From positions 1 to 64,000 of the forward strand of contig CAVZSQ010000001.1 of the NCBI GenBank assembly GCA_963777955.1: a stretch of DNA of 64,000 nucleotides, read 5' to 3'. The position numbers were made by a program, and so were the translations under genes. The DNA is from Calditrichia bacterium. GTDB lineage: Bacteria; Calditrichota; Calditrichia; JAJRVZ01. Below, in pieces: positions 2,654 through 34,579 of the stretch. Each line of letters begins with the position of its first letter. Positions within the stretch are counted from its first letter, which is position 1. A model generated the notes under the pieces. That model worked only from the letters and a program-made list of their open reading frames with translations, was not told the origin of the DNA and made no database searches.

Positions 2654-3965
2654 ATGTCACTTAAAGAAACTAAAAATCTATCCGGAGTTGAGAGGAATAA
2701 TTCATCGCCTGCAGATAAACCTGGAGGAAAGTATCGTTGGGTCATCGTGGCCTTATTGTTTTTTGCTACCACGACCAACTATATTGATCGCCAGGTATTC
2801 GGCATCCTGGCTCCCTTTCTGGAAAAAGAGATCGGTTGGAGTGAACTGGATTACAGTCATATTGTGATTGCCTTTCAGGCTGCTTATGCTATCGGCCTGC
2901 TGTTGGTGGGCAGGTTGATCGACCGCCTGGGCACCAAACTTGGTTATTGTCTGGCCCTGATCTGCTGGAGTCTGGCCTCGATGAGTCATGCCCTGGCCGG
3001 GACGGTCAGAGGATTTGCCACGGCCAGATTCGCGCTGGGGCTCAGTGAAGCGGGCAATTTCCCGGCAGCAATTAAAACTGTGGCTGAATGGTTTCCCAAA
3101 AAGGAAAGGGCCTTTGCCACGGGCCTGTTCAATTCCGGTTCGAATATCGGTGCTATCCTTGCTCCATTAATGGTGCCCTGGATAACCCTGGCCTATGGCT
3201 GGCGGATGGCATTCATCATAACCGCTGCCATAGAATTAATCTGGGTAATCCTCTGGCTTATTTTCTATGACAAACCGGAGAAATCCAGATATTTAAAAGC
3301 GACTGAGTTGGCTTATATTCAGGCAGATCCACCTGATACGCCCGATAAAAATTCCCTGGTTGAGTTTAATAAAATACAAACAAGCCTGGGCCTTCGCTAT
3401 GGGCAAGTTTTTAACCGATCCGGCCTGGTGGTTTTATATATTCTGGATTCCGAAGTTTTTATATTCCAAGCATGGTATAACCCTGAATAAAATTGGACTG
3501 CCGCTGATCATCATCTTTCTGATGGCTGATGTAGGAAGTATAACCGGAGGCTGGTTGTCTTCATTCTTCATTAAACGCGGCTGGACGGTTAACAAAGGCC
3601 GCAAGATGGCCATGTTTATTTGTGCAGCACTGGTAACCCCGATTATTTTAGTCTCGCAGGTCTCTAATCTCTGGGTGGCTGTGGCTTTGTTGAGTCTGGC
3701 CACGGCGGCTCATCAGGGCTGGTCAGCCAATCTGTTCACCATTACCTCGGATGTCTTTCCGCGCAAGGCGGTTGGCTCAGTGGTTGGTTTCGGTGGAACG
3801 GCCGGGGCGATCGGAGGCATGTTGATCTCCACAGCTGCCGGATTGATTCTGGAATTCAGCGGAAGTTATATGCTGATCTTTTTAATTTGCGGATTGCTTT
3901 ATTTGATCGCTTTTGGAATTATTCATTTACTGGTGCCCAAATTGGAATCGATAGAAATGAAATAA
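2654..3965 (+). CDS. exuT: MFS hexuronate transporter, ExuT-like (+1 frameshift near 3348)
   Basis: RWVIVALLFFATTTNYIDRQ, EAGNFPAAIKTVAEWFPKKERA, AAHQGWSANLFT; ORFs 2654 and 3360 join and align with the intact paralogue at 19184. Confidence 0.88.
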
Positions 3966-6394: not shown

Positions 6395-7081
6395 ATGAAG
6401 AAATCATTTGAAATTTACCAGCGTTTAAAGACCCGGCAGCTGATAGCTCTGCTGTCACCGCTGCAACCGGAACATTGTGTGCAAGCTTATGAAGCGTTAA
6501 CACCCCTGGGAATTGTACTGGAAATTGCCTTCCGCACGAAGGCAGCTCTGGACGGGATCAAAGCGGTTTTACAGAAGGATAAAACCGCCCTGATCTTAGC
6601 CGGTACGGTTATGACTGTCAACCAGGCTAAACAGGCGATCAAAGCAGGTGTTGCAGGTGTCGTTTCAGCCGATTACATCGCGGATGTAGTTGAATTCTGC
6701 GTCAAACGTGACATCATGTGCGTGCCTGGCGGTCTGGCTGATGCAGGCAAGCAACTCTCCCTTAAGTCGAAAATTCTGAACTGCCCGTATGAAGATCTTG
6801 CACAACGCTACCCCTATCAGTGGCTGTACAAACTTTTCCCGGCTGTCACACCTCAGGTTGCCTTTTATGAATTGTCGAGGACCTGGCAGGGTCCTTATAA
6901 AGGTCTGACCGTCATCTATACCGGGGGTATTTCGCTTAATAATCTGCCCCAGATCGTACAGAGCGATCCCCTGGGCATTTACTGCGGTTCAGCCCTGACT
7001 AAAGATATAAATCAGCCCGAGAAAATGGTTGAAGAAGCGCAGCGCTGGATCGGGATTGTCGAAAAATACCGGAAAAAATAA
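6395..7081 (+). CDS. eda: KDPG/KHG aldolase family protein
   Basis: LEIAFRT, AGTV, KLFPA Schiff-base lysine, YTGGIS. Confidence 0.8.
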   Translation: MKKSFEIYQRLKTRQLIALLSPLQPEHCVQAYEALTPLGIVLEIAFRTKAALDGIKAVLQKDKTALILAGTVMTVNQAKQAIKAGVAGVVSADYIADVVEFCVKRDIMCVPGGLADAGKQLSLKSKILNCPYEDLAQRYPYQWLYKLFPAVTPQVAFYELSRTWQGPYKGLTVIYTGGISLNNLPQIVQSDPLGIYCGSALTKDINQPEKMVEEAQRWIGIVEKYRKK

Positions 7082-19183: not shown

Positions 19184-20494
19184 ATGATCACGGAGAAACC
19201 AAAAAGTGAAAATCAAAATGTTGCCGGGATGAATGTGCCTCCTCCCGTTACAGCAGGAGGAAATTATCGCTGGGTCATTGTTGCTCTGTTATTTTTTGCC
19301 TCGACAATTAATTATATCGACCGGCAGGTACTGGGTATATTAGCCCCCTTTCTGGAAAAAGAAATCGGCTGGAATGAAATTCAATATGGATACATCGTAA
19401 CCGCCTTTCAGGCTGCTTATGCCATCGGACTGCTATTGGTGGGCCGGTTGATTGACCGCTTGGGAACTAAACTGGGTTATTGCCTGGCGCTGATCGGCTG
19501 GAGTTTAGCAGCCATGGGACATGCCCTGGCCCGGAGTGTAATGGGATTTGCTACGGCCAGATTCGCACTGGGGATCAGTGAAGCGGGGAATTTTCCGGCA
19601 GCTATCAAAACCGTAGCTGAATGGTTTCCGAAAAAGGAGAGAGCCCTGGCTACCGGTTTGTTTAATTCCGGTACGAATGTGGGGGCCATTGCTGCTCCGT
19701 TGATGGTACCCTGGTTAACCATAAATTATGGCTGGCAAATGGCATTCATTGTCACCGGCGCTATCGGATTTACCTGGGTAATATTTTGGCTGTTATTCTA
19801 TGAAAAACCCGAAAAACAGAAACGCCTGAAATCAAGTGAATTAACTTATATTCAATCAGATCCGCCCGATCCGCCGGTTAAAATTCCCTGGTTGAGTTTA
19901 ATAAAATATAAACAAACCTGGGCTTTTGCCATTGCCAAGTTTCTGACCGATCCGATCTGGTGGTTTTACCTGTACTGGGTTCCAAAGTTTTTATTTTCCA
20001 AGCACGGTATTACGCTGGATAAGATCGGGTTACCGCTGGTCATTATCTATGTGATGGCCGATATAGGAAGCATCGGTGGTGGCTGGTTGTCTTCGTTTTT
20101 TATTAAACGTGGCTGGACGGTCAACAAAGGCCGCAAGGTGGCCATGCTGATCTGTGCTCTGGCAGTTGTGCCGATTATTCTGGTCTCGCAGGTCTCTGAA
20201 TTGTGGATGGTAGTTGCGCTGTTGAGTTTGGCGACCGCCGCACACCAGGGCTGGTCGGCCAATCTGTTCACCACGACCTCGGATGTCTTTCCGCGCAAGG
20301 CCATCGGTTCGGTGGTCGGTCTGGGGGGTATGGCTGGGGCTATAGGGGGTATGGTGATTGCAACTATCGCCGGATTCATTCTGGAATTCACTGGCAGTTA
20401 TGTGATACTTTTTTTAATTTGCGGCCTGGTTTATCTGCTGGCCTTCGCAATTTTCAATTTACTGGTGCCTAAATTAGAAGCGGCCGAGATGTAA
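19184..20494 (+). CDS. exuT: MFS hexuronate transporter, ExuT-like
   Basis: Intact paralogue of 2654-3965; NYIDRQ, FLTDPIWWFY, AAHQGWSAN. Confidence 0.9.
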   Translation: MITEKPKSENQNVAGMNVPPPVTAGGNYRWVIVALLFFASTINYIDRQVLGILAPFLEKEIGWNEIQYGYIVTAFQAAYAIGLLLVGRLIDRLGTKLGYCLALIGWSLAAMGHALARSVMGFATARFALGISEAGNFPAAIKTVAEWFPKKERALATGLFNSGTNVGAIAAPLMVPWLTINYGWQMAFIVTGAIGFTWVIFWLLFYEKPEKQKRLKSSELTYIQSDPPDPPVKIPWLSLIKYKQTWAFAIAKFLTDPIWWFYLYWVPKFLFSKHGITLDKIGLPLVIIYVMADIGSIGGGWLSSFFIKRGWTVNKGRKVAMLICALAVVPIILVSQVSELWMVVALLSLATAAHQGWSANLFTTTSDVFPRKAIGSVVGLGGMAGAIGGMVIATIAGFILEFTGSYVILFLICGLVYLLAFAIFNLLVPKLEAAEM

Positions 20495-20503
20495 GAAAAA
20501 CTA

Positions 20504-20557
20504 ACCCACCTCTAGATCCCCTCCCTTATGAATAAGGGAGGGGACAAAGGGGTGGGT
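20504..20557. repeat. Nested GC-rich palindrome (REP-like)
   Basis: TCCCCTCCCTTAT-ga-ATAAGGGAGGGGA inside ACCCACC...GGTGGGT; similar element at 61677. Confidence 0.7.
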
Positions 20558-20586
20558 CAGTATGCAAAAGGCGAAAGGAACAAAAA

Positions 20587-21420
20587 ATGGAAGTGAGATA
20601 TACTGCCGACCAGGTGCGTTATCAGACCATGACCACCGCCGAACTGCGGGAGTCATTCATGCTGGAGAATCTTTTTGCAGCTGGTAAAACAGAACTGGTT
20701 TATTCTGATCTGGACCGGGCCATCATCGGTTCCGCTGTTCCCACCAGCAATGGATTATCTCTGGAAGCCAGTAAAAAAGAGATGGCGGCTGCTTATTTTG
20801 CTGAACGTCGCGAGATAGGTTTGATAAATATCGGAGCAGCGGGCGTGGTTAAAGTTGACGGCAAGGACTATGTACTGGAAAATCGTGATGGATTATATAT
20901 CGGCCGGGGCAGCCGGACAATTCTGTTCAGCAGCATAGATGCCCCAAGGCCTGCCCGTTTTTATCTGCTTAGTTATCCGGCGCACAGCAGTTACCCGACC
21001 ACGCTGATTAAGATGGCCCAGGCTAACCAGGTACACCTTGGTTCGCCGGAAGAAGCCAACCAGCGGATAATCTATCAATATATTCATGTCAATGGTGTGA
21101 AAAGTTGCCAGCTGGTCATGGGTTTTACCCAACTTGCCGTGGGCAGTATCTGGAATACAATGTCCACGCACACCCATCAGCGCCGCAGCGAGATCTATAT
21201 GTATTTTGATCTGGCTGCCAAAGATGTGGTATTTCACTTTATGGGTAAACCAGACGCCACCAAACATATGGTCATGCGTGACAGCCAGGTCGTACTCTCG
21301 CCGAGTTGGTCAATTCATTCGGGAGTCGGCACACGCAATTATGCTTTTATCTGGGGCATGGGCGGGGAGAATCAAGAGTTCACCGATATGGATGCAGTGG
21401 GCATGGAAATTTTAAAGTAG
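20587..21420 (+). CDS. kduI: 5-dehydro-4-deoxy-D-glucuronate isomerase
   Basis: SCQLVMG, WNTMSTHTHQRRSEIYMYF, SPSWSIHSGVG, WGMGGENQEF. Confidence 0.95.
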   Translation: MEVRYTADQVRYQTMTTAELRESFMLENLFAAGKTELVYSDLDRAIIGSAVPTSNGLSLEASKKEMAAAYFAERREIGLINIGAAGVVKVDGKDYVLENRDGLYIGRGSRTILFSSIDAPRPARFYLLSYPAHSSYPTTLIKMAQANQVHLGSPEEANQRIIYQYIHVNGVKSCQLVMGFTQLAVGSIWNTMSTHTHQRRSEIYMYFDLAAKDVVFHFMGKPDATKHMVMRDSQVVLSPSWSIHSGVGTRNYAFIWGMGGENQEFTDMDAVGMEILK

Positions 21421-21427
21421 TGAAACC

Positions 21428-21497
21428 TGGTTATTGGTAATTGGTAATTGGTAATTGGTTATTGGTTATTGGTTATTGGCATTTGGAATTTGGGTAT
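21428..21497 (+). repeat. Ten tandem TGGTWAT-type heptamers
   Basis: TGGTTAT,(TGGTAAT)x3,(TGGTTAT)x3,TGGCATT,TGGAATT,TGGGTAT. Confidence 0.85.
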
Positions 21498-21514
21498 TGC
21501 TTCCTGGAGGTTGT

Positions 21515-22276
21515 ATGATATTGGATAAATTCAAACTGGATGGAAAAATTGCCGTCGTAACAGGAGCGGCCCGCGGGCTGGGTCAGGCCATTGCTGTAGG
21601 ATTAGCTGAAGCCGGAGCCGATCTGGCGGTGGTGGATCTATTGCCTACTGCCGAGACGGAAAAACAGATAACAAAATTAAAGCGCCGTGCCGTCGGCATC
21701 AAGGCTGATCTGGCTGATCTTGATTGTGTGGACGCGATTGTTCAGCAGACATTAACATCTTTTGACCGGATCGATATTTTGTTTAACAATGCCGGTATTA
21801 TTCGCCGGGCCCCGCTGGTTGAGTTCAGCCAGAAGGATTGGGATGATGTTATCAATATCAATCAGCGTACCCTGTTTTTCCTAAGTCAGGCTGTGGTCAG
21901 GCAGTTTATAAAACAGGGCCATGGCGGGAAAATAATTAACACGGCTTCAATGCTGTCATTCCAGGGCGGGATTTTAGTGCCATCATATACAGCGTCCAAA
22001 AGCGCAGTGCTGGGGTTGACACGTCTGATGGCCAACGAACTGGCTAAACATAATATCCAGGTTAATGCCATAGCACCTGGTTATATGGCCACCGACAATA
22101 CCGCGCAACTGCGGTCGGATCCCGAACGGAGTAAATCGATTCTTGACCGTATACCGGCAGGTCGCTGGGGTGAGCCAGGGGATCTGCAGGGGGTTGCCGT
22201 GTTTTTAGCCTCAGCCGCCGCCGATTATATCAGCGGTTACACGATTGCCGTTGATGGCGGCTGGCTGGCCCGTTGA
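21515..22276 (+). CDS. kduD: 2-dehydro-3-deoxy-D-gluconate 5-dehydrogenase
   Basis: SDR with NNAGIIRR, ASMLSFQGGI.VPSYTASKS, VDGGWLAR; next to kduI; GGAGG RBS. Confidence 0.93.
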   Translation: MILDKFKLDGKIAVVTGAARGLGQAIAVGLAEAGADLAVVDLLPTAETEKQITKLKRRAVGIKADLADLDCVDAIVQQTLTSFDRIDILFNNAGIIRRAPLVEFSQKDWDDVININQRTLFFLSQAVVRQFIKQGHGGKIINTASMLSFQGGILVPSYTASKSAVLGLTRLMANELAKHNIQVNAIAPGYMATDNTAQLRSDPERSKSILDRIPAGRWGEPGDLQGVAVFLASAAADYISGYTIAVDGGWLAR

Positions 22277-22354: not shown

Positions 22355-22367
22355 GTTGCTTGATTAT

Positions 22368-23390
22368 ATGCGAAATCGTAAACATTTAACACTTAAAGAT
22401 ATTGCCCGCCAGTTAAAAATTTCCTCGGTAACGGTATCAAAAGCACTCCGCGATCACCCGGATATCAGCCGGACTACCAAGAAATTAGTACAGGAAACAG
22501 CCCAGAAAATGGGGTATGTGCCTGATTATATCGCCCGCAATCTCTCGGCAGGGAAATCCAATACCATCGGCCTGGTAATCCCTAAAATTGCTCATCATTT
22601 TTTTTCATTGGCTATCGAATCCATCTACCGCACCGCCTATGAAAAAAACTATGAAATCATCATGACTGTCTCACAGGAAAATGCCCAGAATGAAATCAAG
22701 CAGATACACACCCTGCTGGCCATGAGAGTGGATGGCCTGCTGATCTCGGTTACCGAGCAGACCCGCGATACCCAGATATTCGAACACGTGCGGGATCTCA
22801 ATGTACCGCTGGTTTTTTTTGATCGCGTCATTGACGGATTGGGTTTCAGTTGCGTGGTGACCGATGATTATAAAAGTTCTCTGCAAACTACCGGAAGATT
22901 ACTCGATACCGGATTCAGAGATATAATTCACCTGGCCGGGTATCAGCATACCAGTATCGGCAAGAAACGCCTGGCCGGTTTTCAACGCGCTTTCGAAGAG
23001 AGGGGACTGCCCCTGCCGCCGAACCACTTCATCGAAGGGGGATTCGGCGAAGAAGACGGTTATCGCGGTTTTATTCAACTATATAACAGCGGTAAACTGC
23101 CCCAGGTTATTTTTACGGTGACTTTCCCGGTAGCCCTGGGTGTGCTGCTGGCTGCTGAAGAGGCCGGCTTGAAAGTACCGGACGACCTGCACCTGATCAG
23201 TTTCGGCGGCAGTAACTATAACCGTTTTCTTAAACCGTCACTGACCTATATCGAACAACCAGTTGAAGAGATCGGCCGTATCGCTACTGAATTGTTATTC
23301 GAAGAAATAAGGGTAGGACGGGGACCATCCGGACGACGGATTGAATTACCGACTAATCTGGTTTTTTGTGATACATGCAAAAAATTTTAG
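22368..23390 (+). CDS. LacI-family transcriptional regulator
   Basis: TLKDIARQLKISSVTVSKAL HTH, hinge YVPDYIARNL, PLVFFDR, PSLTYIEQP. Confidence 0.93.
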   Translation: MRNRKHLTLKDIARQLKISSVTVSKALRDHPDISRTTKKLVQETAQKMGYVPDYIARNLSAGKSNTIGLVIPKIAHHFFSLAIESIYRTAYEKNYEIIMTVSQENAQNEIKQIHTLLAMRVDGLLISVTEQTRDTQIFEHVRDLNVPLVFFDRVIDGLGFSCVVTDDYKSSLQTTGRLLDTGFRDIIHLAGYQHTSIGKKRLAGFQRAFEERGLPLPPNHFIEGGFGEEDGYRGFIQLYNSGKLPQVIFTVTFPVALGVLLAAEEAGLKVPDDLHLISFGGSNYNRFLKPSLTYIEQPVEEIGRIATELLFEEIRVGRGPSGRRIELPTNLVFCDTCKKF

Positions 23391-23402: not shown

Positions 23403-24815
23403 ATGGCCAGCTTGAAATTAAATCCAAATCGCTTTTTTGATCCTGATCCTGCAATCAGAAAAATAGCGGCCGGATTGTATGATCAGGTCAGGAATTTACC
23501 TATTATCAGCCCGCATGGCCATGTGGATGCCAGGCTGCTGGCTGAAAATAATCCGTTTCCCGATCCGGCAGAACTGATCCTGATACCCGACCATTATATT
23601 TTCCGCATGCTCTATTCCCAGGGTATCGCTCTGGAGACATTAGGGATACCTGCTATAGATGGTCGGGCCGTGGAAAAAGATCATCGCAAAATCTGGCAGA
23701 CCTTTGCCGATCATTTTTATCTGTTCGCCGGTACACCCACCGGCGCCTGGCTCGCGCATGAACTCAGTGAAGTTTTCGGCATAACTGAAAAATTGAGCGG
23801 CGGCAGCGCGCTAAAAATCTATGACCAGTTGCTGGCGAAACTGCAATCGGCTGAATTCCTGCCGCGGGCTCTGTTCGACCGCTTCAGAATCGAGGTGCTT
23901 ACTACCACTGATGGAGCAGCCGATTCATTATCATATCACCGTAAAATTAAAGAATCGGGATGGGCGGGACGCGTGCTCCCGGCTTTCCGGCCGGATGCTG
24001 TCATTAATCTCTCTGCCGCCGGTTGGCAGGCGGAAATCGGGAAATTGGAGAAAGTGACCGGACGAAATATTTCTTCCTTCAAGGAATTCCTCACTGCCCT
24101 GGAAGAGCGGCGTTCGTTCTTCAAATCAATGGGTGCCACTTCCACCGATCAGGGTGTGTTCAGTCCATATACCCATAAACTGAGTACAGCAGAAGTTGAA
24201 GCTATATTTAAACGGGGATTGCATGCCCAGGCTGACGAAAAAGATGCGGCTGCATTCACCGGACATATGCTGATGGAAATGGCCCGCATGAGTGTCGAAG
24301 ACGGCCTGGTCATGCAGATTCATCCCGGCTCATTCCGTAATCATAATCAATTTGTATTAAAGCGCTTCGGTACAGACAAGGGTTCCGATATTCCCGTGCA
24401 AACGGAATATACACACAACCTCCATGAATTACTGAATGAATACGGCAATGATCCCCGCTTGACCCTGGTGGTATTCACCCTGGACGAATCCAGCTATTCA
24501 CGCGAACTGGCGCCGCTGGCCGGACATTATCCGGCGATGAAATTAGGACCGTCATGGTGGTTCCATGACAGTATTGAAGGGATGACCCGTTTTCGCGAGA
24601 GTGTTACCGAAACAGCGGGAATTTATAATACCGTGGGCTTTATTGATGATACCCGTGCCTTTCTTTCCATTCCAGCGCGGCATGACCTGAGCCGCCGGGT
24701 CGATGCAAATTTTCTGGCCCGTCTGGTAGCCCGCCATATCATCGATCTGGAGGATGCGGACAGGATGATTCACGACCTGACCTATAATCTGGCCAAGAAA
24801 ACCTTTAAACTGTAA
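23403..24815 (+). CDS. uxaC: Uronate isomerase
   Basis: IISPHGH, PDHYIFRMLYSQG, MQIHPG, SWWFHDS, GFIDDTRAFLSIPARHD. Confidence 0.95.
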   Translation: MASLKLNPNRFFDPDPAIRKIAAGLYDQVRNLPIISPHGHVDARLLAENNPFPDPAELILIPDHYIFRMLYSQGIALETLGIPAIDGRAVEKDHRKIWQTFADHFYLFAGTPTGAWLAHELSEVFGITEKLSGGSALKIYDQLLAKLQSAEFLPRALFDRFRIEVLTTTDGAADSLSYHRKIKESGWAGRVLPAFRPDAVINLSAAGWQAEIGKLEKVTGRNISSFKEFLTALEERRSFFKSMGATSTDQGVFSPYTHKLSTAEVEAIFKRGLHAQADEKDAAAFTGHMLMEMARMSVEDGLVMQIHPGSFRNHNQFVLKRFGTDKGSDIPVQTEYTHNLHELLNEYGNDPRLTLVVFTLDESSYSRELAPLAGHYPAMKLGPSWWFHDSIEGMTRFRESVTETAGIYNTVGFIDDTRAFLSIPARHDLSRRVDANFLARLVARHIIDLEDADRMIHDLTYNLAKKTFKL

Positions 24816-24832
24816 AAATCCGGGTGATAGAC

Positions 24833-26080
24833 ATGAAATTAGCAAAATACTCATTGGGCATAGGCGATCGTTTTTCGCAGCAGGCCAGGGCACAATTGAA
24901 AGCGATTATGCTGGCCAAAGAAAAAAACGTGCTGATCACACCGGTCTGGAATAAATCATACCGTGAACATCAATTGATCGGCAGTACTCCAGCTACGACC
25001 CGCCAGCAGGCCGACGAAGCGGTCAAAAATCTGGCCTGGTCAGAGACCTATTTTGTGGATGCCGATCATATTAATCTGAAGAATGTCGATTTCTTTATGG
25101 ATAGTTGTGATTTCTTTACTCTCGATGTTGCAGATGCTATCGGCCAGCAAGCCACGGCGAGTGAAGTCAAATCTTTTATTAACAAATACTCCAGCTACGC
25201 TGGTGATCTGCCCCTGGCTGGCTTGGATAAAAGTATTCAGGTTACGGCAACCCTGATCCGGGAAGTTGCCGGGAAATATTTGTTCGCTGCCCGGCAGGCC
25301 GGAGAGATATACCGTCATATTAAAAGGAGCAGACCGGACGGTGCCTTTATAATCGAAGTTTCCATGGATGAGACTGACCAACCGCAAACACCGCTGGAAT
25401 TATTCTTTATCCTGGCTGCCCTGGCCGATCAGCAGATCCCCGTGCAAACCCTGGCGCCTAAATTCAGCGGCCGCTTCAACAAGGGGGTTGATTATGTCGG
25501 TGACCTCGATAAATTCCGGGATGAATTCGAGCAGGATATCGTTATTCTGAAAACTGCCATCCCTAAATTCAATTTACCGGCGGATTTAAAACTGAGTGTG
25601 CATTCAGGCAGTGATAAGTTTTCACTATATCCGGTTATCCGCCAATTAATCCGTAAACACGATGCCGGAGTACATCTGAAAACAGCCGGTACCACCTGGC
25701 TGGAAGAATTGATCGGACTGGCCGAGGGAAGCCCGGCAGGCCTGCGGCTGGCTAAAGATATATACAACCGTTCTTTGGAAAAATACGATGAATTATGTGC
25801 ACCATATGCCACGGTCATTGATATAGATAAACGCAAACTGCCGGCCAGGGAACAGGTCCAGCATTGGGACGGCCTGACCTTCAGTAGCACTCTGCGGCAT
25901 GATCAGCAGCATAAAAATTACAATCCGCACTTTCGCCAGCTCCTGCATGTGGGTTATAAAATTGCCGCCGAAAAAGGCGACTTATACCTGAAGAACCTGC
26001 GGGAGTGCAGCGAAGTGATTGCCGGCAATGTAACGACAAATTTATTTGAGCGGCATATTAAGCCGCTTTTTCTGGAATAA
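24833..26080 (+). CDS. uxaE: Tagaturonate/fructuronate epimerase
   Basis: SLGIGDRF, DADH, EVSMDET, GRFNKGVDYVGD, KLSVHSGSDKF, HLKTAGTTWLE. Confidence 0.88.
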   Translation: MKLAKYSLGIGDRFSQQARAQLKAIMLAKEKNVLITPVWNKSYREHQLIGSTPATTRQQADEAVKNLAWSETYFVDADHINLKNVDFFMDSCDFFTLDVADAIGQQATASEVKSFINKYSSYAGDLPLAGLDKSIQVTATLIREVAGKYLFAARQAGEIYRHIKRSRPDGAFIIEVSMDETDQPQTPLELFFILAALADQQIPVQTLAPKFSGRFNKGVDYVGDLDKFRDEFEQDIVILKTAIPKFNLPADLKLSVHSGSDKFSLYPVIRQLIRKHDAGVHLKTAGTTWLEELIGLAEGSPAGLRLAKDIYNRSLEKYDELCAPYATVIDIDKRKLPAREQVQHWDGLTFSSTLRHDQQHKNYNPHFRQLLHVGYKIAAEKGDLYLKNLRECSEVIAGNVTTNLFERHIKPLFLE

Positions 26081-26097: not shown

Positions 26098-26932
26098 GTG
26101 GAAAAAAATAATTTGGCAAACTATGTTTGATCTGAACGGAAAAGTAATTGCTAGTCACCGGTGCCACCGGTATACTAGGCGGAGAAATTGCCTGTGCACT
26201 GATCGAACTCGGAGCCCGGGTGGCCATCATGGATATGCAGACCGAATTAGCGGATGAAATCAACAACGCCTGTCGGGATTTTCCGAACAGTATATTGTGC
26301 TTAAATGCGATGTGCTCAATCGCGAATCGGTTGGTGATGCTCTGCAGCAAATTTTAAGAGTTTTTAAAAATGTCGATTGCCTGATCAATGCCGCCGGCGG
26401 GAATAATCCCAAAGCTACCACCTCGGCCGATCAACCATTTTTTGATATTCCTGCCGATGCTTTTAACTGGGTGCTGCAGTTGAATCTGAACGGTACGGTG
26501 CTGCCCTGCCAGGTATTCGGCAAATATTTTGCCGGCCGCGGGCAGGGAAATATTCTGAATATATCTTCGATGAACGCTTTCCGGCCGCTGACCCGTATTC
26601 CGGCCTATTCAGCCGCCAAAGCTGCGGTTAGTAATTTTACACAGTGGCTGGCTGTTCATATGGCTCAGGAATACTCGAAAAATATCCGGGTCAATGCGGT
26701 GGCTCCGGGATTTTTCCTGACCCAGCAAAATCGTTTTTTATTAACTGATGAAAAAAGCGGCGAACTGACCACCCGTGGCAAAACGATCATCAATCATACG
26801 CCATTAGGCCGGTTTGGAAATCCGGCTGATCTGCTGGGAGCCGTGGTATGGTTATTATCCCCGGCCTCGGACTTTGTTACCGGATCGGTCATTGCGGTCG
26901 ATGGCGGTTTTGCTGCTTTCAGCGGCGTATAA
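26098..26932 (+). CDS. uxuB: SDR D-mannonate oxidoreductase (fructuronate reductase, UxuB/UxuD-like); several single-base frameshifts at 26100-26265
   Basis: VTGATGILG, LINAAGGN.P.ATT, NISSMNAFRPLTRIPAYSAAKAAVSNFTQWLAVH; GGAG before GTG 26098. Confidence 0.8.
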
Positions 26933-26968: not shown

Positions 26969-28423
<1,455 letters not shown>

Positions 28424-28480
28424 CCTGCACAGGATTTATGGCAGTGAGCCGCTAACCAGATGACTAACGGGTAGTTGAGT

Positions 28481-29737
28481 ATGCTTGTTGGTAAAGGTGA
28501 ACCGGGACTTGTGCTGAGTGAAGCTGATGTATTACAGCTTTGTACTCAGGCGCTGGATTCCATGAAACTTGATGGACGCCGGGTGCTGGCCATTATTCCC
28601 GATCTTTCCAGGACGGCACCCCTGGATATCATGTTCCGGTCTGTCTACAAACTTCTGGCTCACCGGGTAAAAAACCTCGATTTTATCATTGCCAGCGGAA
28701 CTCATCCCCCCTTGAGTGAAGCAGCGATTAATCAACGGGTGGGAATTACTCAGCAGGAACGGCAAACCAAATATTCCCAGGCTCGTTTCTTTAATCATTA
28801 CTGGAACAAAGCAGATCAATTAAAGCATGTCGGTACCATAGATGCGGAAGAGGTAGAACGTATCTCGGCCGGATTGATGCGACAGAAAGTGGATATATCG
28901 ATCAATAAAATGGTATTCGACTATGATCTGTTAATGATAATCGGTCCAACTTTTCCGCATGAAGTGGTGGGCTTCTCCGGGGGGACCAAATATCTTTTTC
29001 CGGGGATTGCCGGCCAGAATATTATTGATATGTTCCACTGGCTGGGTGCCCTGATCACCAATCCGCGTATCATCGGCATTACGGATACACCCGTACGCAA
29101 AATAGTTGACCGGGCGGCAGCTTTATTGCCCATCGAGCAGATCTGTTTAAGTCTGGTGGTGCAGGGGCAGGGCCTGGCCGGCCTGTTTATCGGGACGCCG
29201 GAGCAAGCCTGGCGTGCCGCGGCAAATTTGTCGCGCCAGATACATATTGTTTACAAGGATCATGCTTTCAAGAAAGTGTTGTCCTGTGCCCCGGCCATGT
29301 ATGAAGATCTGTGGACCGGCGGTAAATGTATGTATAAACTGGAACCGGTGGTGGCCGACGGCGGGGAATTGATTATTTATGCTCCGCATATAAAAGAAGT
29401 TTCGGTAACCCATGGTACCATACTGGAAAAAATCGGTTATCATGTGCGGGATTATTTTGTAAAGCAGATGGATAAATTTCAGGATATCCCCGCCGGAGTG
29501 ATGGCGCACTCCACCCATGTCAAAGGTGCCGGGACCTATGTGGACGGTGTTGAACGTCCCAGAATCAAAGTCACGCTGGCCAGCGGGATATCAGCGGAGA
29601 TTTGTAAAAAAATAAATTTGGGCTATCTGAATCCGGATTCGATTTATATTAGTGAATGGCAGAACCGGGAAGAGCAGGGGATTCTGTATGTGCCCAAAGC
29701 AGGTGAAATATTATACAGATTAAAAGAGGAAATATAA
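28481..29737 (+). CDS. LarA-family (nickel-pincer) 2-hydroxyacid racemase/epimerase, probable mannonate/gluconate 2-epimerase
   Basis: IPDLSRT, ASGTH, FPHEVVGFSGGTK, KCMYK LarA-type motifs; substrate inferred from gene context. Confidence 0.8.
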   Translation: MLVGKGEPGLVLSEADVLQLCTQALDSMKLDGRRVLAIIPDLSRTAPLDIMFRSVYKLLAHRVKNLDFIIASGTHPPLSEAAINQRVGITQQERQTKYSQARFFNHYWNKADQLKHVGTIDAEEVERISAGLMRQKVDISINKMVFDYDLLMIIGPTFPHEVVGFSGGTKYLFPGIAGQNIIDMFHWLGALITNPRIIGITDTPVRKIVDRAAALLPIEQICLSLVVQGQGLAGLFIGTPEQAWRAAANLSRQIHIVYKDHAFKKVLSCAPAMYEDLWTGGKCMYKLEPVVADGGELIIYAPHIKEVSVTHGTILEKIGYHVRDYFVKQMDKFQDIPAGVMAHSTHVKGAGTYVDGVERPRIKVTLASGISAEICKKINLGYLNPDSIYISEWQNREEQGILYVPKAGEILYRLKEEI

Positions 29738-31024
29738 ATGGCACAGAAAAAGAATGTTGTTGTAGCCCAGTCCGGCGGACCTTCGCCGGTAATCAACAAT
29801 TCCCTGCGCGGTATTGTTGATGCCTGTAAAATGTTTCCGGAAAAGTTCCAGGAGATCTATAGCGGCTATCACGGTATCGAGGGGGTGCTGAAAGAAGAAT
29901 TACTGGATCTGTCAGCCCAGCCGGAACAGGAGATTGCACTGTTGCGCACCACGCCGGCTGCCGGATCGATAGGTACCTGTCGCTACAAACTGAAAGAAAA
30001 ACAGAAAAAAGATTTTCAGCGGGTGATCGATGTGTTCAAGGCTCACGACATCGGTTATTTCTTTTATATCGGCGGGAATGATTCCATGGATACGGCGCAT
30101 AAAGTGGCCGCCATGGCCAGGACCCAGGGGCTGGATCTGATTGCCACCGGGGTGTCCAAAACTATCGATAATGATGTGGGGGATTCTGCCTTCAAATTGA
30201 TCGATCATACGCCGGGATACGGCAGTGTGGCCCGTTACTGGGCTTGTATGGTGCAGAATATTAATGAAGAGAATATGGGTTCATCACCGGCAGATCCGGT
30301 AATTGTGCTGCAGGCCATGGGCCGGAAAATAGGTTTTATTCCGGCTGCTGCCCGTCTGGCCGATCCGAAACGGGAGATGCCGCTGCAGATATATCTGCCG
30401 GAGTCCGGGTTGTCCCTGGCCGCTCTGGCTGATCACGTTAACGATGAACTGAAACGCAGCGGCCGGGTGATCGTGGTGGTCAGCGAGGGATTTGATGTCG
30501 GGGAACTTGGTGAGGTGAAAGATTCGTTCGGCCATACCAAGTTCAGTTCCAGCATGCTGACGGTCCAGCAGGCGGTGGTCAATCATCTGAACGGGGCTAA
30601 ATTACAGGCCCGCGGGGCAGCGCGGGGACAGGTACCCGGTACCGATCAACGGGATACCATGATTTATGCTTCGACCGTTGATTTGGAAGAGGCTTATAAA
30701 ATCGGTCAGAACGCCGTGCGGATTGCCGTGGAAGAAGGATCGGGTTATATGTCCACCCTGCTGCGGCGGCCGGGATTTATCTATAATGTCGATTATGACA
30801 AAGTACCGCTGGAACAGGTAGCCAATTCCGAACGCAAATTTCCTGAAAACTGGATTGCGCCCAACCGGATAGATGTAACCGATGAATTCGTCCGGTATGC
30901 CCGTCCGTTGATCGGAGAGGATTGGGTCAGCGTACCGGTAATCGACGGCCGGCAGCGCTTCGCCCGGCTTGAAAAAATATTTGCCGGACAGAAACTGCCT
31001 AAATACGTACCCGAAGCATACTAA
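29738..31024 (+). CDS. PfkA-family kinase with pyrophosphate-type signature
   Basis: AQSGGPSPVIN, IGGNDSMDT, SKTIDND, MGR, VVSEG. Confidence 0.85.
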   Translation: MAQKKNVVVAQSGGPSPVINNSLRGIVDACKMFPEKFQEIYSGYHGIEGVLKEELLDLSAQPEQEIALLRTTPAAGSIGTCRYKLKEKQKKDFQRVIDVFKAHDIGYFFYIGGNDSMDTAHKVAAMARTQGLDLIATGVSKTIDNDVGDSAFKLIDHTPGYGSVARYWACMVQNINEENMGSSPADPVIVLQAMGRKIGFIPAAARLADPKREMPLQIYLPESGLSLAALADHVNDELKRSGRVIVVVSEGFDVGELGEVKDSFGHTKFSSSMLTVQQAVVNHLNGAKLQARGAARGQVPGTDQRDTMIYASTVDLEEAYKIGQNAVRIAVEEGSGYMSTLLRRPGFIYNVDYDKVPLEQVANSERKFPENWIAPNRIDVTDEFVRYARPLIGEDWVSVPVIDGRQRFARLEKIFAGQKLPKYVPEAY

Positions 31025-31062
31025 CAGAACATGGATGAAATTTAATTAAGGAGATCTTCGAA

Positions 31063-31950
31063 ATGACTGATCCGCAAGCTTTATTACGGGAATTCAAACC
31101 GAAGCATAAATTTTTAATTGCGATTGACTCGGATGGTTGCGCCTTTGATACGATGGAAATCAAACATAAAGAATGTTTCATACCCAATATCATCAAGTAC
31201 TGGAACCTGCAACCGGTTTCCAAATATGCCCGGGCTGCAGCCGAATTCGTTAACCTGTACTCCAGGTGGCGCGGGATCAATCGCTTCCCGGCCCTGACCA
31301 TGACCTTCGATCTGTTGCAGGAGTGGCCGGAAGTGCAGAAACGGAAGGTGGAGATTCCCGCAGCACTTTCCCTGAGGGAGTGGATCAAACGGGAAACCAA
31401 ACTCGGCAATCCGGTGCTGGAAGCGGAAGTTAAAAAGACTGCAGATCCAATTCTTAAGCAGGCCCTGGATTGGAGCAAGGCGGTGAATGCTTCTGTGGCC
31501 GATCTGGTACATCATGTGCCGCCGTTTCCATTTGTGCGGGAATCGCTGTCGAAGATCAGCGCATGGGCCGATATCATCGTCTGTTCGGCGACCCCCTATG
31601 AAGCCTTGCGCCGGGAATGGGAGGAACATGATATTGCCAAATATACTCAGGTGATTGCGGGTCAGGAGATGGGCAGTAAAAAGGAGCACATCCAGTTTGC
31701 CTCCTCCGGCCGGTACGATAAGGATAAGGTTCTGATGATCGGGGATGCTCCCGGCGATATGAAAGCAGCGCTGGGCAACGAGGCCAAATTCTTCCCGGTC
31801 AATCCCGGTGAAGAGGAAAAATCGTGGGAGCTATTTTATAAAGAAATCGCCGACAAGTTTAACCAGGGAACCTATAGCAGGGAAACGGAGCAGAAATTGA
31901 TCCAGGAATTCGACCGGCATCTGCCGGAACTCCCGCCCTGGAAAAAATAG
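31063..31950 (+). CDS. HAD-superfamily hydrolase
   Basis: IDSDGCAFDT motif I, CSAT motif II, MIGDAPGD motif IV. Confidence 0.85.
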   Translation: MTDPQALLREFKPKHKFLIAIDSDGCAFDTMEIKHKECFIPNIIKYWNLQPVSKYARAAAEFVNLYSRWRGINRFPALTMTFDLLQEWPEVQKRKVEIPAALSLREWIKRETKLGNPVLEAEVKKTADPILKQALDWSKAVNASVADLVHHVPPFPFVRESLSKISAWADIIVCSATPYEALRREWEEHDIAKYTQVIAGQEMGSKKEHIQFASSGRYDKDKVLMIGDAPGDMKAALGNEAKFFPVNPGEEEKSWELFYKEIADKFNQGTYSRETEQKLIQEFDRHLPELPPWKK

Positions 31951-31956
31951 AGTCAA

Positions 31957-32397
31957 TCATTTCCACTGAACGCGGACGAATCTCAGGGTGACCAGACCAA
32001 ATGAGATGGTCAGCCGATTGCCGCTTATTGAATAACTGCCGGTCATTATCTCATTTGACGAATTTATAGTAATGGACCCGGCCGAAGTGTAATAGGTTCC
32101 GTTTATAGTAAAATTATAAGAATCCTGATAATAAACGGTCCGCATGGTTCCGTCGGAATTGAAAGTCCAAATCTCGTATTCTGCCTCGCTTATATTATTT
32201 ATCCATCTGCCCAGAAGTTCGGGATCAAGAGTATTTTCTGCAGAAGGATCGGGCAGATATAGATCATTATTCTGTCCATAGCCCTCTTCACTGCCGCCGG
32301 TTATACCCAGGGGATTATCGCCGCCCCATTGGGCACAGCCAGTGATTATAAGAATAAAGAGGGAGGATAATATAAAATTATAAATGAATCGCTTCAT
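31957..32397 (-). CDS. Lipoprotein paralogue 5 with conserved CAQWGGDNPLGITGGS N-peptide and lipocalin-like beta domain
   Basis: Lipobox ITGC; GAGGAG RBS before ATG 32397. Confidence 0.85.
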   Translation of the reverse strand: MKRFIYNFILSSLFILIITGCAQWGGDNPLGITGGSEEGYGQNNDLYLPDPSAENTLDPELLGRWINNISEAEYEIWTFNSDGTMRTVYYQDSYNFTINGTYYTSAGSITINSSNEIMTGSYSISGNRLTISFGLVTLRFVRVQWK

Positions 32398-32465
32398 TTT
32401 ATATCTCCTCTGTTTAATATAAGACGACAAGTTCAAAAAGGTGTTCGTCGGGAACATTGGCTATT

Positions 32466-32927
32466 TCAGTTTTGGTACCAGACTATTTGCGGATTTATTC
32501 GAAGTAAAAGCAGTTCTTGCTCACCATCATTAAGTGTCAGATAATCACCGTTTATCGAATAAATATAAATTATCCTTTCGCCATCACTGTTGAGCGTGAG
32601 AATATTGCTGGAGACATTATAGGTCCCTTCAGTTTCTTGTGGACTGACCCCAGAGTGAGTCACCATGGTAAACGTACCATTGGCATTAAAAGCAATAGTG
32701 CGAATAGTTTGAACCCACCGACCTGCTGAAGTCCACAAACCTACCAACTCAAAATCGATGGTATTCCCGCCCGCGGGGTCCGGTAAATTTAAATCTTCAT
32801 TTTGTCCGTATCCCTCCCCGCTGCCGCCGGTTATACCCAGCGGATTATCCCCGCCCCATTGGGCACAACCACTTATTATAATAGTAAATAGCAGAGATAA
32901 TAAAGGAGCAAAACTTAATCGTTTCAT
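32466..32927 (-). CDS. Lipoprotein paralogue 4 of the array
   Basis: Lipobox ISGC followed by the invariant peptide; AGGAG RBS. Confidence 0.85.
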   Translation of the reverse strand: MKRLSFAPLLSLLFTIIISGCAQWGGDNPLGITGGSGEGYGQNEDLNLPDPAGGNTIDFELVGLWTSAGRWVQTIRTIAFNANGTFTMVTHSGVSPQETEGTYNVSSNILTLNSDGERIIYIYSINGDYLTLNDGEQELLLLRINPQIVWYQN

Positions 32928-33096
32928 TTCCTGATCTCCTGTGCTTTAAAAAATCATTCCACAATAAAGGTTGCTGGAGACAACTTTTATTGCGGATTAA
33001 CTTTAATTTCTGTAACGACTAAGAAAAAATCTCAGTTATGATTTAAACTCTTTATCCGCAGTAGCAAATATGCGTCGTATCAGGATGAATTTTAAC

Positions 33097-33531
33097 CTAG
33101 CGAATCTGACCCCGATGTAGAACCAGTATATAATCTCCCTGGGTAAGCGTCAGTTGATTACCATTAATCTCATAGGTCATAATTGACGAGCCATCGTTAG
33201 AACTTAGTGTCAGGATATTTCCGGAAACGCTCCAGGTTCCTTCATAACTGTCATCTAAACTATCATAGAAGTATTCTTCAATCTGATAGGTTCCATCCGC
33301 ATTAAAAGTGTAGACAAGAGAATAGGGATAATCATACATACTCCACACACCCACCAGATCGGGATCGATCTGGTCGGAACCGTCGGGTAAATTCAAATCG
33401 TTATTTTTTCCATAGCCATTATTACTGCCGCCGGTTATTCCCAGGGGATTATCGCCGCCCCACTGGGCACAACCACCTATCATTATGATTGAAAGGAAGA
33501 ATAGAAAAAGAGTAAATATAATTAGTTTCAT
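33097..33531 (-). CDS. Lipoprotein paralogue 3 of the array
   Basis: Lipobox IGGC followed by the invariant peptide; GGAGGAG RBS before ATG 33531. Confidence 0.85.
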   Translation of the reverse strand: MKLIIFTLFLFFLSIIMIGGCAQWGGDNPLGITGGSNNGYGKNNDLNLPDGSDQIDPDLVGVWSMYDYPYSLVYTFNADGTYQIEEYFYDSLDDSYEGTWSVSGNILTLSSNDGSSIMTYEINGNQLTLTQGDYILVLHRGQIR

Positions 33532-33563
33532 TTCGGGGACTCCTCCGTCTGTTAAGAAAGATA

Positions 33564-33606
33564 ATATCAAACCTAAGATTGGCGCTGACAACCTTAGGTT
33601 TGATAT
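33564..33606 (-). terminator. Perfect 14-bp intergenic hairpin within the lipoprotein array
   Basis: ATATCAAACCTAAG / CTTAGGTTTGATAT. Confidence 0.5.
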
Positions 33607-33619
33607 ACTTGCAGATCGA

Positions 33620-34072
33620 TTATTCTATAATGATATCGGCTCGGGTCAGTATCAGTTCAACATCACCATCATCAAGCGTCAGGTGATTGTTATTTACCGA
33701 ATAAGTATAAACGAGAGTTTCACCACCATAAATGTTAAAAGTAAGGGTATTCCCGGAGACACTATATGTTCCTTCCATCACCTGGGTGAATTTCGTGGAG
33801 TGTATCACTATTGTAAAAGTACCGCTGGCATTAAAAGCAAAAGTATAGGTGGTCTGTACCCATTGGCCGGCAGTAACCCACATCCCAATCAGTTCCGGAT
33901 CGATGATATTCCCATCGGCAGGTTGTGGTAAATTTAGATCGCCATTTTGTCCGTAACCCTCCTCACTCCCTCCGGTTATGCCCAGAGGATTGTCACCGCC
34001 CCACTGCGCACAACCAATCAGCAAAAATACAAATATGGCAGGTATCATCAAATAATTTATGAATTGTTTCAT
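33620..34072 (-). CDS. Lipoprotein paralogue 2 of the array
   Basis: Lipobox LIGC followed by the invariant peptide; AAGGAG RBS. Confidence 0.85.
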   Translation of the reverse strand: MKQFINYLMIPAIFVFLLIGCAQWGGDNPLGITGGSEEGYGQNGDLNLPQPADGNIIDPELIGMWVTAGQWVQTTYTFAFNASGTFTIVIHSTKFTQVMEGTYSVSGNTLTFNIYGGETLVYTYSVNNNHLTLDDGDVELILTRADIIIE

Positions 34073-34143
34073 TTTTCGATCTCCTTGATCTAATTCGCAT
34101 CAAAATCTGAATAAATGAATTCAGATAAAATATAATTACGATC

Positions 34144-34579
34144 CTATGTTACTCTTTTGGCACGGTATAGCACTATTTGTTTATTGCCATAGGACAGGAT
34201 AAGTCTGATTACCGTCTACCAGATAGGTATATACCTCCGAATTACCGCCGGAACTAATAGTAAGGGTGTCACCGGAAACGCTCCAGAGTCCTGAGATGGT
34301 TCTGTCTAACTGGTTTTCGAGATAATGCTCCATCGTAAAAGTTCCATCGGCATAAAATGTAAATACCGTTGTTGAATTGTCTCCATAGGACGCCCAGCTA
34401 GCCACAAGTTCTGGATCAATTTCACCGAAATTCTCCGGTAAATTCAGATCGTTATTTTGTCCGTACCCTTCTTTGCTGCCACCGGTTATACCCAGGGGAT
34501 TATCACCACCCCATTGGGCACAACTGCAAAGTAGCACGGCTAACAGGAATACGATCAAAAGAGGCATGTGTCGCTTCAT
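34144..34579 (-). CDS. Lipoprotein paralogue 1 of the array (+1 frameshift near 34204)
   Basis: Lipobox LCSC followed by the invariant peptide; removing one base gives GNQLILSYGNKQIVLYRAKRVT*, matching the paralogue C-termini. Confidence 0.8.

Follow-up and report, generated by a model that had tools for sequence, protein, structure and literature searches.

We have analyzed a stretch of 64,000 nucleotides (the window) from the genome of a Calditrichia bacterium, and in particular the last two genes of a same-strand run in the order lacI-uxaC-uxaE-uxuB-gnd-larA-pfk-HAD. The first of the two (29738..31024, + strand) encodes a 428-amino-acid protein related to phosphofructokinase (PFK), and its ATG at 29738 follows directly upon the larA stop, which ends at 29737. 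The second (31063..31950, + strand) begins 38 nt beyond the end of the PFK gene, is preceded by AAGGAG at 31048-31053, and encodes a HAD-superfamily enzyme of 295 amino acids. This is the layout described in an earlier note on this DNA, which also remarked that the cluster lacks a gluconate kinase; neither gene matches TIGR01313 or TIGR01314, and there is no such kinase in the operon. The surroundings are those of a pectin locus, with a glycoside hydrolase of family GH28, a pectin methylesterase, an ExuT-like transporter, kduI and kduD, and an eda-like gene further upstream. We propose that PFK and HAD form a module, conserved across phyla, that most likely supplies the missing phosphorylation.

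The step in question belongs to the GntE route, of which the operon holds uxaE, a mannonate oxidoreductase, a GntE-type LarA and gnd all together. The route is already known from Thermotoga maritima, where the hexuronate branch is summarized as UxaE, fructuronate reductase, GntE2 (LarAH20, 4NAR), GntK and Gnd (PMC6978723, citing Rodionova 2012), and the passage from uronate to ribulose 5-phosphate is given as redox-neutral. The two systems share the upstream and downstream enzymes and the GntE-type LarA, leading to 6-phosphogluconate. What differs is the kinase position, occupied in Thermotoga by a GntK-type FGGY kinase, and in the operon by a pyrophosphate (PPi)-type PfkA homolog together with HAD. 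Table S1 of PMC7583248 assigns LarA group 18 a ribokinase-family kinase and group 20 an FGGY kinase but lists no PFK, and neither "phosphofructokinase" nor "HAD" is mentioned in two supplements of that paper.

The PFK protein is a PfkA-family, PPi-type phosphotransferase, placed by profile, fold and tree in a cluster-linked clade of the PRK14072 subfamily. Its match to NF010675 scores 370.5 bits against a cut-off of 273. The nearest structures are 3HNO and 3K2Q, with 3HNO best by both sequence and fold (TM-score 0.85). PPi-type PfkA enzymes are recognized by an Asp at the fourth position of GGD(D/G) and the Lys of PKTIDxD (PMC12203962); the equivalent D115 and K141 are present in 81/81 rows of the clade, which are partly redundant. 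In a quick IQ-TREE analysis of 36 rows, a branch of 0.97 (SH-aLRT 100) divided the clade from the remaining PRK14072 proteins, and a single row of great length (P0172) was placed on the side of the clade. Compared with PRK14072 PPi-PFKs from Nitrosospira (3HNO), Marinobacter (3K2Q) and Methylococcus (Q609I3, as cited in PMC5673643), the operon protein has ∼36% identity and the same fold, and shares the Asp104/Lys124-type PPi signature and the TIDND and MGR motifs. It is unlike them in belonging to a separate, long-branched clade carrying Q192, K197-I198 and D303, in its linkage to hexonate genes, and in being an extra copy beside an ordinary PPi-PFK.

The motifs singled out in the earlier note are all found, with GGND at 112-115, SKTIDND at 140-146, QAMGRKIGF at 192-200 and VPGTDQR at 299-305. 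Its suggestion that they depart from common Pfk motifs holds for Q192, K197-I198 and D303, which are typical of the clade, but not for S140 and T302, which are not diagnostic. Position 140 varies within the clade (P in 55, S in 21 and A in 5 of 81 rows), and T302 also occurs in 18/89 outgroup proteins. By contrast Q192 is present in 81/81 clade rows where 76/89 outgroup rows have Glu, and I198 and D303 are found in 79/81 and 76/81 rows respectively; these clade-typical residues flank the acceptor loop. The catalytic and acceptor-ring residues T142, D144, D146, M194, G195, R196 and E250 are invariant in 31/31 aligned sequences. The catalytic base is Asp127 in E. coli numbering. Two ligands of the 6-phosphate of fructose 6-phosphate (F6P), R296 and R305, are kept, and the other two have become P187 and T302, at positions that are also variable in the outgroup. 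In the classical enzyme Arg162 binds the F6P phosphate and a Glu at 161 lowers the affinity (PMC12203962). The clade has Asp at 161 in 79/81 and Pro at 162 in 80/81 rows (D186-P187 here), an Asp-Pro pair that occurs outside the clade too. SKTIDND, the loss of Arg162 and a change of His249 to Thr were considered as proof of a new acceptor and rejected, because these positions vary. The sequence comparison suggests that the acceptor site has been tuned; a new substrate is not thereby proven.

In the HAD protein the residues of motifs I to IV (D22, D24, T177, K206, D228 and D232) are invariant in 17/17 aligned members. A large helical cap is inserted after motif I, and carries several invariant basic residues. 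The structure model has a pLDDT of 95, and its nearest folds are phosphoglycolate phosphatase and β-phosphoglucomutase, at 12-19% identity. As judged from the model, the protein is a phosphatase or phosphotransferase, the nearest folds including phosphatases and mutases alike. Searching with the sequence gave no real match in the PDB, only unnamed HAD clusters in the ESM Atlas, and among 251 Bacillota genomes a single match, in an unrelated context and without PFK. A Cof-type HAD domain stands in front of the HAD in many fused members of the family (P0276-P0295), and glycoside hydrolase or BTAD domains are fused to a few members. Long proteins considered as fusion evidence were one HAD-Gnd (P0273), one Gnd-PFK and two PFK-HAD, but those containing PFK have frameshift-like stretches and are single records each, and none was counted.

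Comparison of related loci brought out two further proteins, which we have named PfkBx, a 360-amino-acid PfkB protein closest to kinases of 2-keto-3-deoxygluconate (KDG), and PfkBy, a second PfkB type. Both are uncharacterized KdgK-like families found beside larA and gnd in clusters lacking PFK (e.g., L062:3220-4299 and L064:6538-7614), and are candidate ATP-dependent gluconate or mannonate kinases. Loci seeded on the PFK (n = 43) contain HAD in 32, hexonate LarA in 27, gnd in 27 and uxuB in 26 cases. At least one of uxuB, larA and gnd is present in 33/43, an association far beyond chance, and PfkBx, PfkBy or an FGGY kinase in none of the 43. In a panel of all 78 Calditrichota genomes of at least 80% completeness, 30 of which have a hexonate LarA, the PFK clade and HAD occur in the same seven genomes, each beside LarA. 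PfkBx occurs in 18, and no genome has both PFK clade and PfkBx (hypergeometric P 0.0004, which is overstated as kin are not independent); HAD is absent from all 18 PfkBx genomes. Nineteen loci from the other 23 Calditrichota LarA genomes, all lacking PFK, contain gnd (18), PfkBx (14) and PfkBy (1), so that one or other PfkB is present in 15 of these 19 larA loci. In L073 and L076 the PfkBx is additional to a canonical KdgK.

The same pattern is seen among 261 Verrucomicrobiota genomes, where the PFK clade is present in 17, PfkBx in 11 and both in none, all 28 having a hexonate LarA; HAD is found in 17/17 of the PFK-clade genomes, mostly unlinked there. A set of 306 loci, collected from different seeds, partly redundant, omitting L005 and L089 and defining the clade by at least 60% identity, contains 81 with the PFK clade, 32 with PfkBx and 18 with PfkBy, and none with two of the three. 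In one Verrucomicrobiota locus, as in Thermotoga, larA and larE occur with uxuB and an FGGY kinase. In three other PFK-clade genomes tested TIGR01313 was over cut-off in none. Mutual exclusivity, which the earlier note suggested profiling with respect to gntK, is observed towards PfkBx in the two panels and towards PfkBx and PfkBy alike in every locus compared, but the kinase replaced in close relatives is a KdgK-like PfkB and not a canonical gntK.

The part that is exchanged can be seen in loci seeded on HAD, for which we used the best 80 of 551 metagenome loci, many of them short. These contain a clade PFK in 23 cases, an out-of-clade PFK in four, PfkBx in four, PfkBy in one, a KdgK-type kinase in one, and no kinase in view in 47. 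L103 has the order PFK-HAD-uxaE, and L104 and L105 have PfkBx-HAD-uxaE with HAD intact at 70% identity. As PfkBx takes the PFK slot ahead of an intact HAD, this points to PFK as the part replaced and to HAD as an accessory. HAD alone as a substitute for the kinase was considered, and is weakened by the PfkBx-HAD and PfkBy-HAD loci. In L085 PfkBx and gnd are separated by a HAD remnant of 63 residues (L085:7940-8128), which looks like the outcome of a kinase swap followed by decay of HAD. The HAD family also extends beyond the PFK clade, being present in 68/261 against 17/261 Verrucomicrobiota genomes; 22 of the 68 lack a hexonate LarA, and 7/11 PfkBx genomes of that sample have HAD. A pdxB-like 4-phosphoerythronate dehydrogenase gene (423 bits, cut-off 434) lies within the cluster in several phyla (L044, L049, L050, L054, L055 and L094), and is present in 10 of the best 80 HAD-seeded loci.

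What else could phosphorylate the sugar acid in the source genome? The assembly is 91.8% complete, and profile searching revealed no TIGR01313 gluconokinase in it. There are four intact FGGY kinases, one scoring as a xylulokinase, one as a near-cut-off rhamnulokinase and two unassigned (L007 and L008); none reaches the gntK cut-off, the scan covering these four and not a fifth FGGY gene that is in two pieces. A canonical gntK elsewhere, which the earlier note had held would count against its reading, is therefore not seen over cut-off. Five genes have PF00365: two carry ATP-type motifs, one is a PPi-PFK of Thermotogales type that exceeds its cut-off, one is an N-terminally extended PFK, and the last is the operon PFK. 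The extended protein (L004:1039-2538) has 500 amino acids, with ∼150 residues ahead of a divergent PfkA domain; judged by a motif, the extension may resemble a cyclic-nucleotide-binding domain. A gene of the transaldolase/fructose-6-phosphate aldolase (TAL/FSA) family (PF00923 over cut-off) is present in 5/5 PFK+HAD genomes tested, including this one, where the protein has 223 amino acids; it could be an FSA-type aldolase, and three short proteins of the five could be aldolases. zwf is present in two pieces, and a separate uxuB-uxuA pair lies elsewhere (uxuA at G000:C18:142763-143951). No KdgK-like gene was found, although distant KdgK types could escape the thresholds used. Since eda (window 6395-7081), kduI and kduD (20587-22276) and uxuA are present without it, KDG has no evident kinase in this genome.

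The epimerase of the operon (28475..29737, + strand) is a LarA-family hexonate 2-epimerase of GntE type, whose best PDB match is Thermotoga GntE2 (4NAR, E 2e-63). It keeps R46, K172 and H188 and the H-E-V loop. PFK loci are served by two LarA subfamilies, the operon type and group 18, the latter over the NF052594 cut-off. No LarA signature tracking the type of kinase was seen in six motif regions, and with the motifs constant it is probable that the kinases, whatever their type, all act at one step. For GntE2, which acts on free mannonate, the KM is 17 mM, and GntE1 has a KM of 120 mM, its authors suspecting another native substrate (PMC7583248). A further difference from Thermotoga is that larB and larE gave no match in the source genome with queries verified over cut-offs, and there was no larC-like motif, larC being sought by a motif only, although the LarA keeps its cofactor-binding residues. 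An assembly gap, uptake of the cofactor or another cofactor are all possible.

The remaining genes of the run, all on the + strand, are a LacI-family regulator (22356..23390; PF00356 and PF13377), uxaC, uronate isomerase (23403..24815; PRK02925 over cut-off), uxaE, tagaturonate/fructuronate epimerase (24824..26080; PF16257), a uxuB-type D-mannonate oxidoreductase that is a short-chain dehydrogenase/reductase (SDR) (26123..26932; PRK08277 over cut-off on the 3′ part), and gnd, NADP-dependent 6-phosphogluconate dehydrogenase (26969..28423; TIGR00873, 761 bits, over cut-off). Upstream lie the pectin-catabolic genes for the ExuT-like transporter, of the major facilitator superfamily, kduI and kduD (19184..22276, + strand), assigned by profile matches. 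The 5′ part of uxuB has its frame broken twice, near 26152 and near 26250-26260, giving two frames by tblastn. This is likely to be an assembly error, because contigs of related strains from two of four sequencing runs lack one base at 26152. Window 2654-3965 and the genome's uxuA and zwf (C22:302157-303693) are frame-split in addition to uxuB (26123-26932), which suggests indel errors in the assembly. A promoter scan returned seven sites against 13.8 expected, which is uninformative. Beyond the operon, window 31957-34579 has five tandem paralogous lipoprotein-like open reading frames on the minus strand, in which the N-terminal stretch following the signal peptide is nearly identical. In certain small-genome bacteria an iolB-like gene (TIGR04378 over cut-off for L044) stands directly before uxuB or PFK (L044, L045, L048, L049, L061, L123 and L136).

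From these data we infer the following reactions. UxaC, UxaE and UxuB would convert pectin uronates into D-mannonate, LarA would invert C2, one step would place a phosphate on C6, and Gnd would decarboxylate 6-phosphogluconate to ribulose 5-phosphate. In the explanation that we favor, at about even confidence, the PFK homolog is a PPi-dependent sugar-acid kinase and HAD is a clean-up phosphatase. PFK would itself phosphorylate the sugar acid with PPi as donor, the substrate being seated like F6P, so that the 6-phosphate pocket holds its carboxylate and the terminal CH2OH lies at the catalytic Asp144. HAD would strip phosphate from dead-end or Gnd-inhibiting sugar-acid phosphates, such as the wrong epimer or 4-phosphoerythronate. 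The direct role of PFK is argued by the mutual exclusion of PFK, PfkBx and PfkBy, by the slot swap and by the presence of a PfkB or FGGY kinase in loci lacking PFK. It is further argued by the two ATP-type PFKs, Thermotogales-type PPi-PFK and transaldolase-family gene that the genome already has, and by the clade-typical residues flanking the acceptor loop. There is also a precedent in SqiK (PF00365), which replaces YihV (PF00294) on sulfofructose in the sulfo-EMP2 pathway (PMC9594981). There too a PfkA-family kinase stands in place of a PfkB-family one and acts on a fructose analog with a non-phosphate C6 group, but that group is a sulfonate rather than a carboxylate, and an aldolase follows instead of an epimerase and Gnd. 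The accessory role of HAD is suggested by its family being wider than the PFK clade, by the pdxB-like gene in HAD-seeded loci, and by the inhibition of Gnd by 4-phosphoerythronate, for which the repair phosphatases PGP, Pho13 and CpgA offer a model (PMC6449344). This would probably be a new activity for the PfkA fold, within a variant of a known route. The literature searched, which did not include most subscription papers, yielded no PPi-dependent kinase of gluconate, mannonate or fructuronate and no PfkA-fold enzyme acting on a carboxylated sugar.

Which sugar acid would be the acceptor? By stereochemistry, fructuronate differs from fructose in having a carboxylate at C6, and mannonate is what fructuronate becomes on reduction. 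Both match F6P, whereas gluconate has the opposite configuration at the carbon that corresponds to C5 of fructose. The earlier note proposed a gluconate or mannonate kinase. PFK, with HAD, does fill the kinase slot of the GntE route, but to its intact residues gluconate is no better a fit than mannonate, fructuronate or plain F6P. In G108 and G109 a single uxuB adjoins uxuA and PFK, so that free mannonate is made there and is the likely branch point. For this reason, and because mannonate and fructuronate mimic F6P most closely, we place mannonate slightly ahead, as a tentative and by itself unlikely assignment; gluconate, suggested by analogy with Thermotoga, and a keto-uronate would each be improbable. 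If mannonate is the acceptor, LarA would act on 6-phosphomannonate, like the unassigned activities of Lactobacillus suebicus. In that organism mannonate is phosphorylated first and then epimerized, by genes given as not known (PMC6978723), and there too the isomerase route is joined to Gnd by a passage from mannonate to 6-phosphogluconate. It is unlike the operon in that an ATP-dependent activity was observed in extracts and GntK homologs were suspected, the account in PMC6978723 implicating no PFK or HAD.

A number of observations weigh against a direct sugar-acid kinase. T142/D144/D146, M194-G195-R196, E250, R296 and R305 match the conserved residues of enzymes that use F6P, and the loss of Arg162 is weak evidence, as only 15/89 outgroup proteins have Arg or Lys at 162. 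The genome has two uncharacterized FGGY kinases (L007 and L008), and with larB and larE not found the epimerase may be without its cofactor. The exclusion in Verrucomicrobiota is not significant alone (P about 0.09, with kin not independent), and 62/90 LarA genomes of that phylum lack both PFK clade and PfkBx, four of five checked having PfkBy elsewhere. Four HAD clusters (L111, L127, L139 and L151) contain an out-of-clade, ordinary-looking PRK14072 PFK, the quick tree placing those of L111 and L139 outside the clade. Some genomes hold both kinds of kinase: in G085, a 1.4 Mb single-cell genome in which no HAD was found, PFK lies at one locus and PfkBx at another; G114 combines PFK-HAD with two PfkBx; G087 has PFK and PfkBy; and G874 has an intact-motif PFK and PfkBy, where four other tested PFK genomes lack PfkBy. 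In a sub-branch from six Bacillota and one Victivallales genome, PFK has lost R296, T302 and D303; PfkBy is present in addition in three of the six Bacillota and in the Victivallales genome, and the six Bacillota lack HAD.

Several of these observations would be accommodated by a relay of two enzymes, which we regard as a real but doubtful possibility. PFK would use PPi to make a phosphate donor, either fructose 1,6-bisphosphate or else fructuronate 1-phosphate, and HAD would pass the phosphate via phospho-Asp22 to C6 of gluconate or mannonate. The intact F6P-ring residues of PFK are consistent with this, as are the out-of-clade PFKs serving in four HAD clusters and the constancy with which HAD accompanies the PFK clade (7/7 Calditrichota, 17/17 Verrucomicrobiota and 4/4 Marinisomatota-type loci) against 0/18 Calditrichota PfkBx genomes. 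L085, with only a remnant of HAD after PfkBx, and the 11/32 HAD loci having at least two of uxuB, larA and gnd but no kinase in view, point the same way, and the HAD phosphotransferase ThrH offers a precedent, standing in for a kinase in vivo (PMC1079889). Yet intact HADs stand beside PfkBx in four loci and PfkBy in one, with PfkBx in PFK's own slot in L104 and L105. Moreover 22 Verrucomicrobiota genomes have the HAD family without a hexonate LarA, complete or near-complete HAD+LarA genomes without PFK (G814 and G859) have PfkBy elsewhere, and with fructose 1,6-bisphosphate as donor the other PFKs of the genome would suffice. Doubtful to the same degree is the fuller proposal that PFK and HAD together are an ATP-free kinase, transferring phosphate from PPi onto a ketose carrier (F6P or fructuronate) and thence to C6 of mannonate, gluconate and perhaps KDG, with LarA acting on the phosphorylated hexonate. 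Either this relay or the direct kinase would be compatible with a broad C6 kinase system that serves KDG too, and hence an Entner-Doudoroff branch. We consider that improbable, although the source genome has kduI, kduD, uxuA and eda without a KdgK-like gene found, and a KdgK-like match (E ≤ 1e-30) is present in 0/7 PFK+HAD Calditrichota while 13/18 PfkBx genomes have a second, KdgK-like match. A KdgK at 68-74% identity to the query is present in 9/40 other PFK-seeded genomes, and the genomes are incomplete and the thresholds such that distant KdgK types could escape.

The most conservative interpretation is an ordinary reversible PPi-PFK acting on F6P or sedoheptulose 7-phosphate (S7P) for pentose-phosphate output, with HAD as a repair phosphatase and an unrecognized kinase elsewhere phosphorylating the hexonate; we think this unlikely. 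The protein does score as a PRK14072 member with all catalytic residues kept, transketolase is present in 8/81 PFK-clade loci, and some genomes hold PFK together with PfkBx or PfkBy. THTE_2629 of Thermogutta terrifontis, a possible member of the clade, carries by homology only the label of a PPi-PFK phosphorylating S7P, in a genome without transaldolase; gnd (THTE_2631) lies two genes away from it and an SDR gene three, and it was not induced on xanthan (fold change 0.87, false discovery rate 0.48) (PMC5673643). But an ordinary PPi-PFK leaves the PfkBx exclusion and the slot swap unexplained, and PfkBx clusters have the same pentose output with no PFK. A TAL/FSA-family gene, in three short cases possibly an aldolase, is present in 5/5 PFK+HAD genomes tested, and no TIGR01313 kinase is over cut-off in the source genome or in 3/3 other PFK-clade genomes. 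The S7P bypass that the earlier note offered as its alternative is not needed in the source genome, where a transaldolase-family gene and an ordinary PPi-PFK are already present.

The conclusion that emerges is that this enzyme family probably has a second job in sugar-acid catabolism. If so, a PfkA-fold enzyme would act on a carboxylated sugar, and many proteins annotated as 6-phosphofructokinase would be misassigned. The comparison also exposes PfkBx and PfkBy as two uncharacterized PfkB kinases for the same step. The order of phosphorylation and epimerization is left open in the literature between Thermotoga and L. suebicus, and the relay with LarA acting on a phosphorylated hexonate would, if true, link the orphan 6-phosphomannonate 2-epimerase to a type of gene. 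With PPi driving the kinase step, anaerobic pectin degraders in many phyla would spend one ATP less on each sugar acid.

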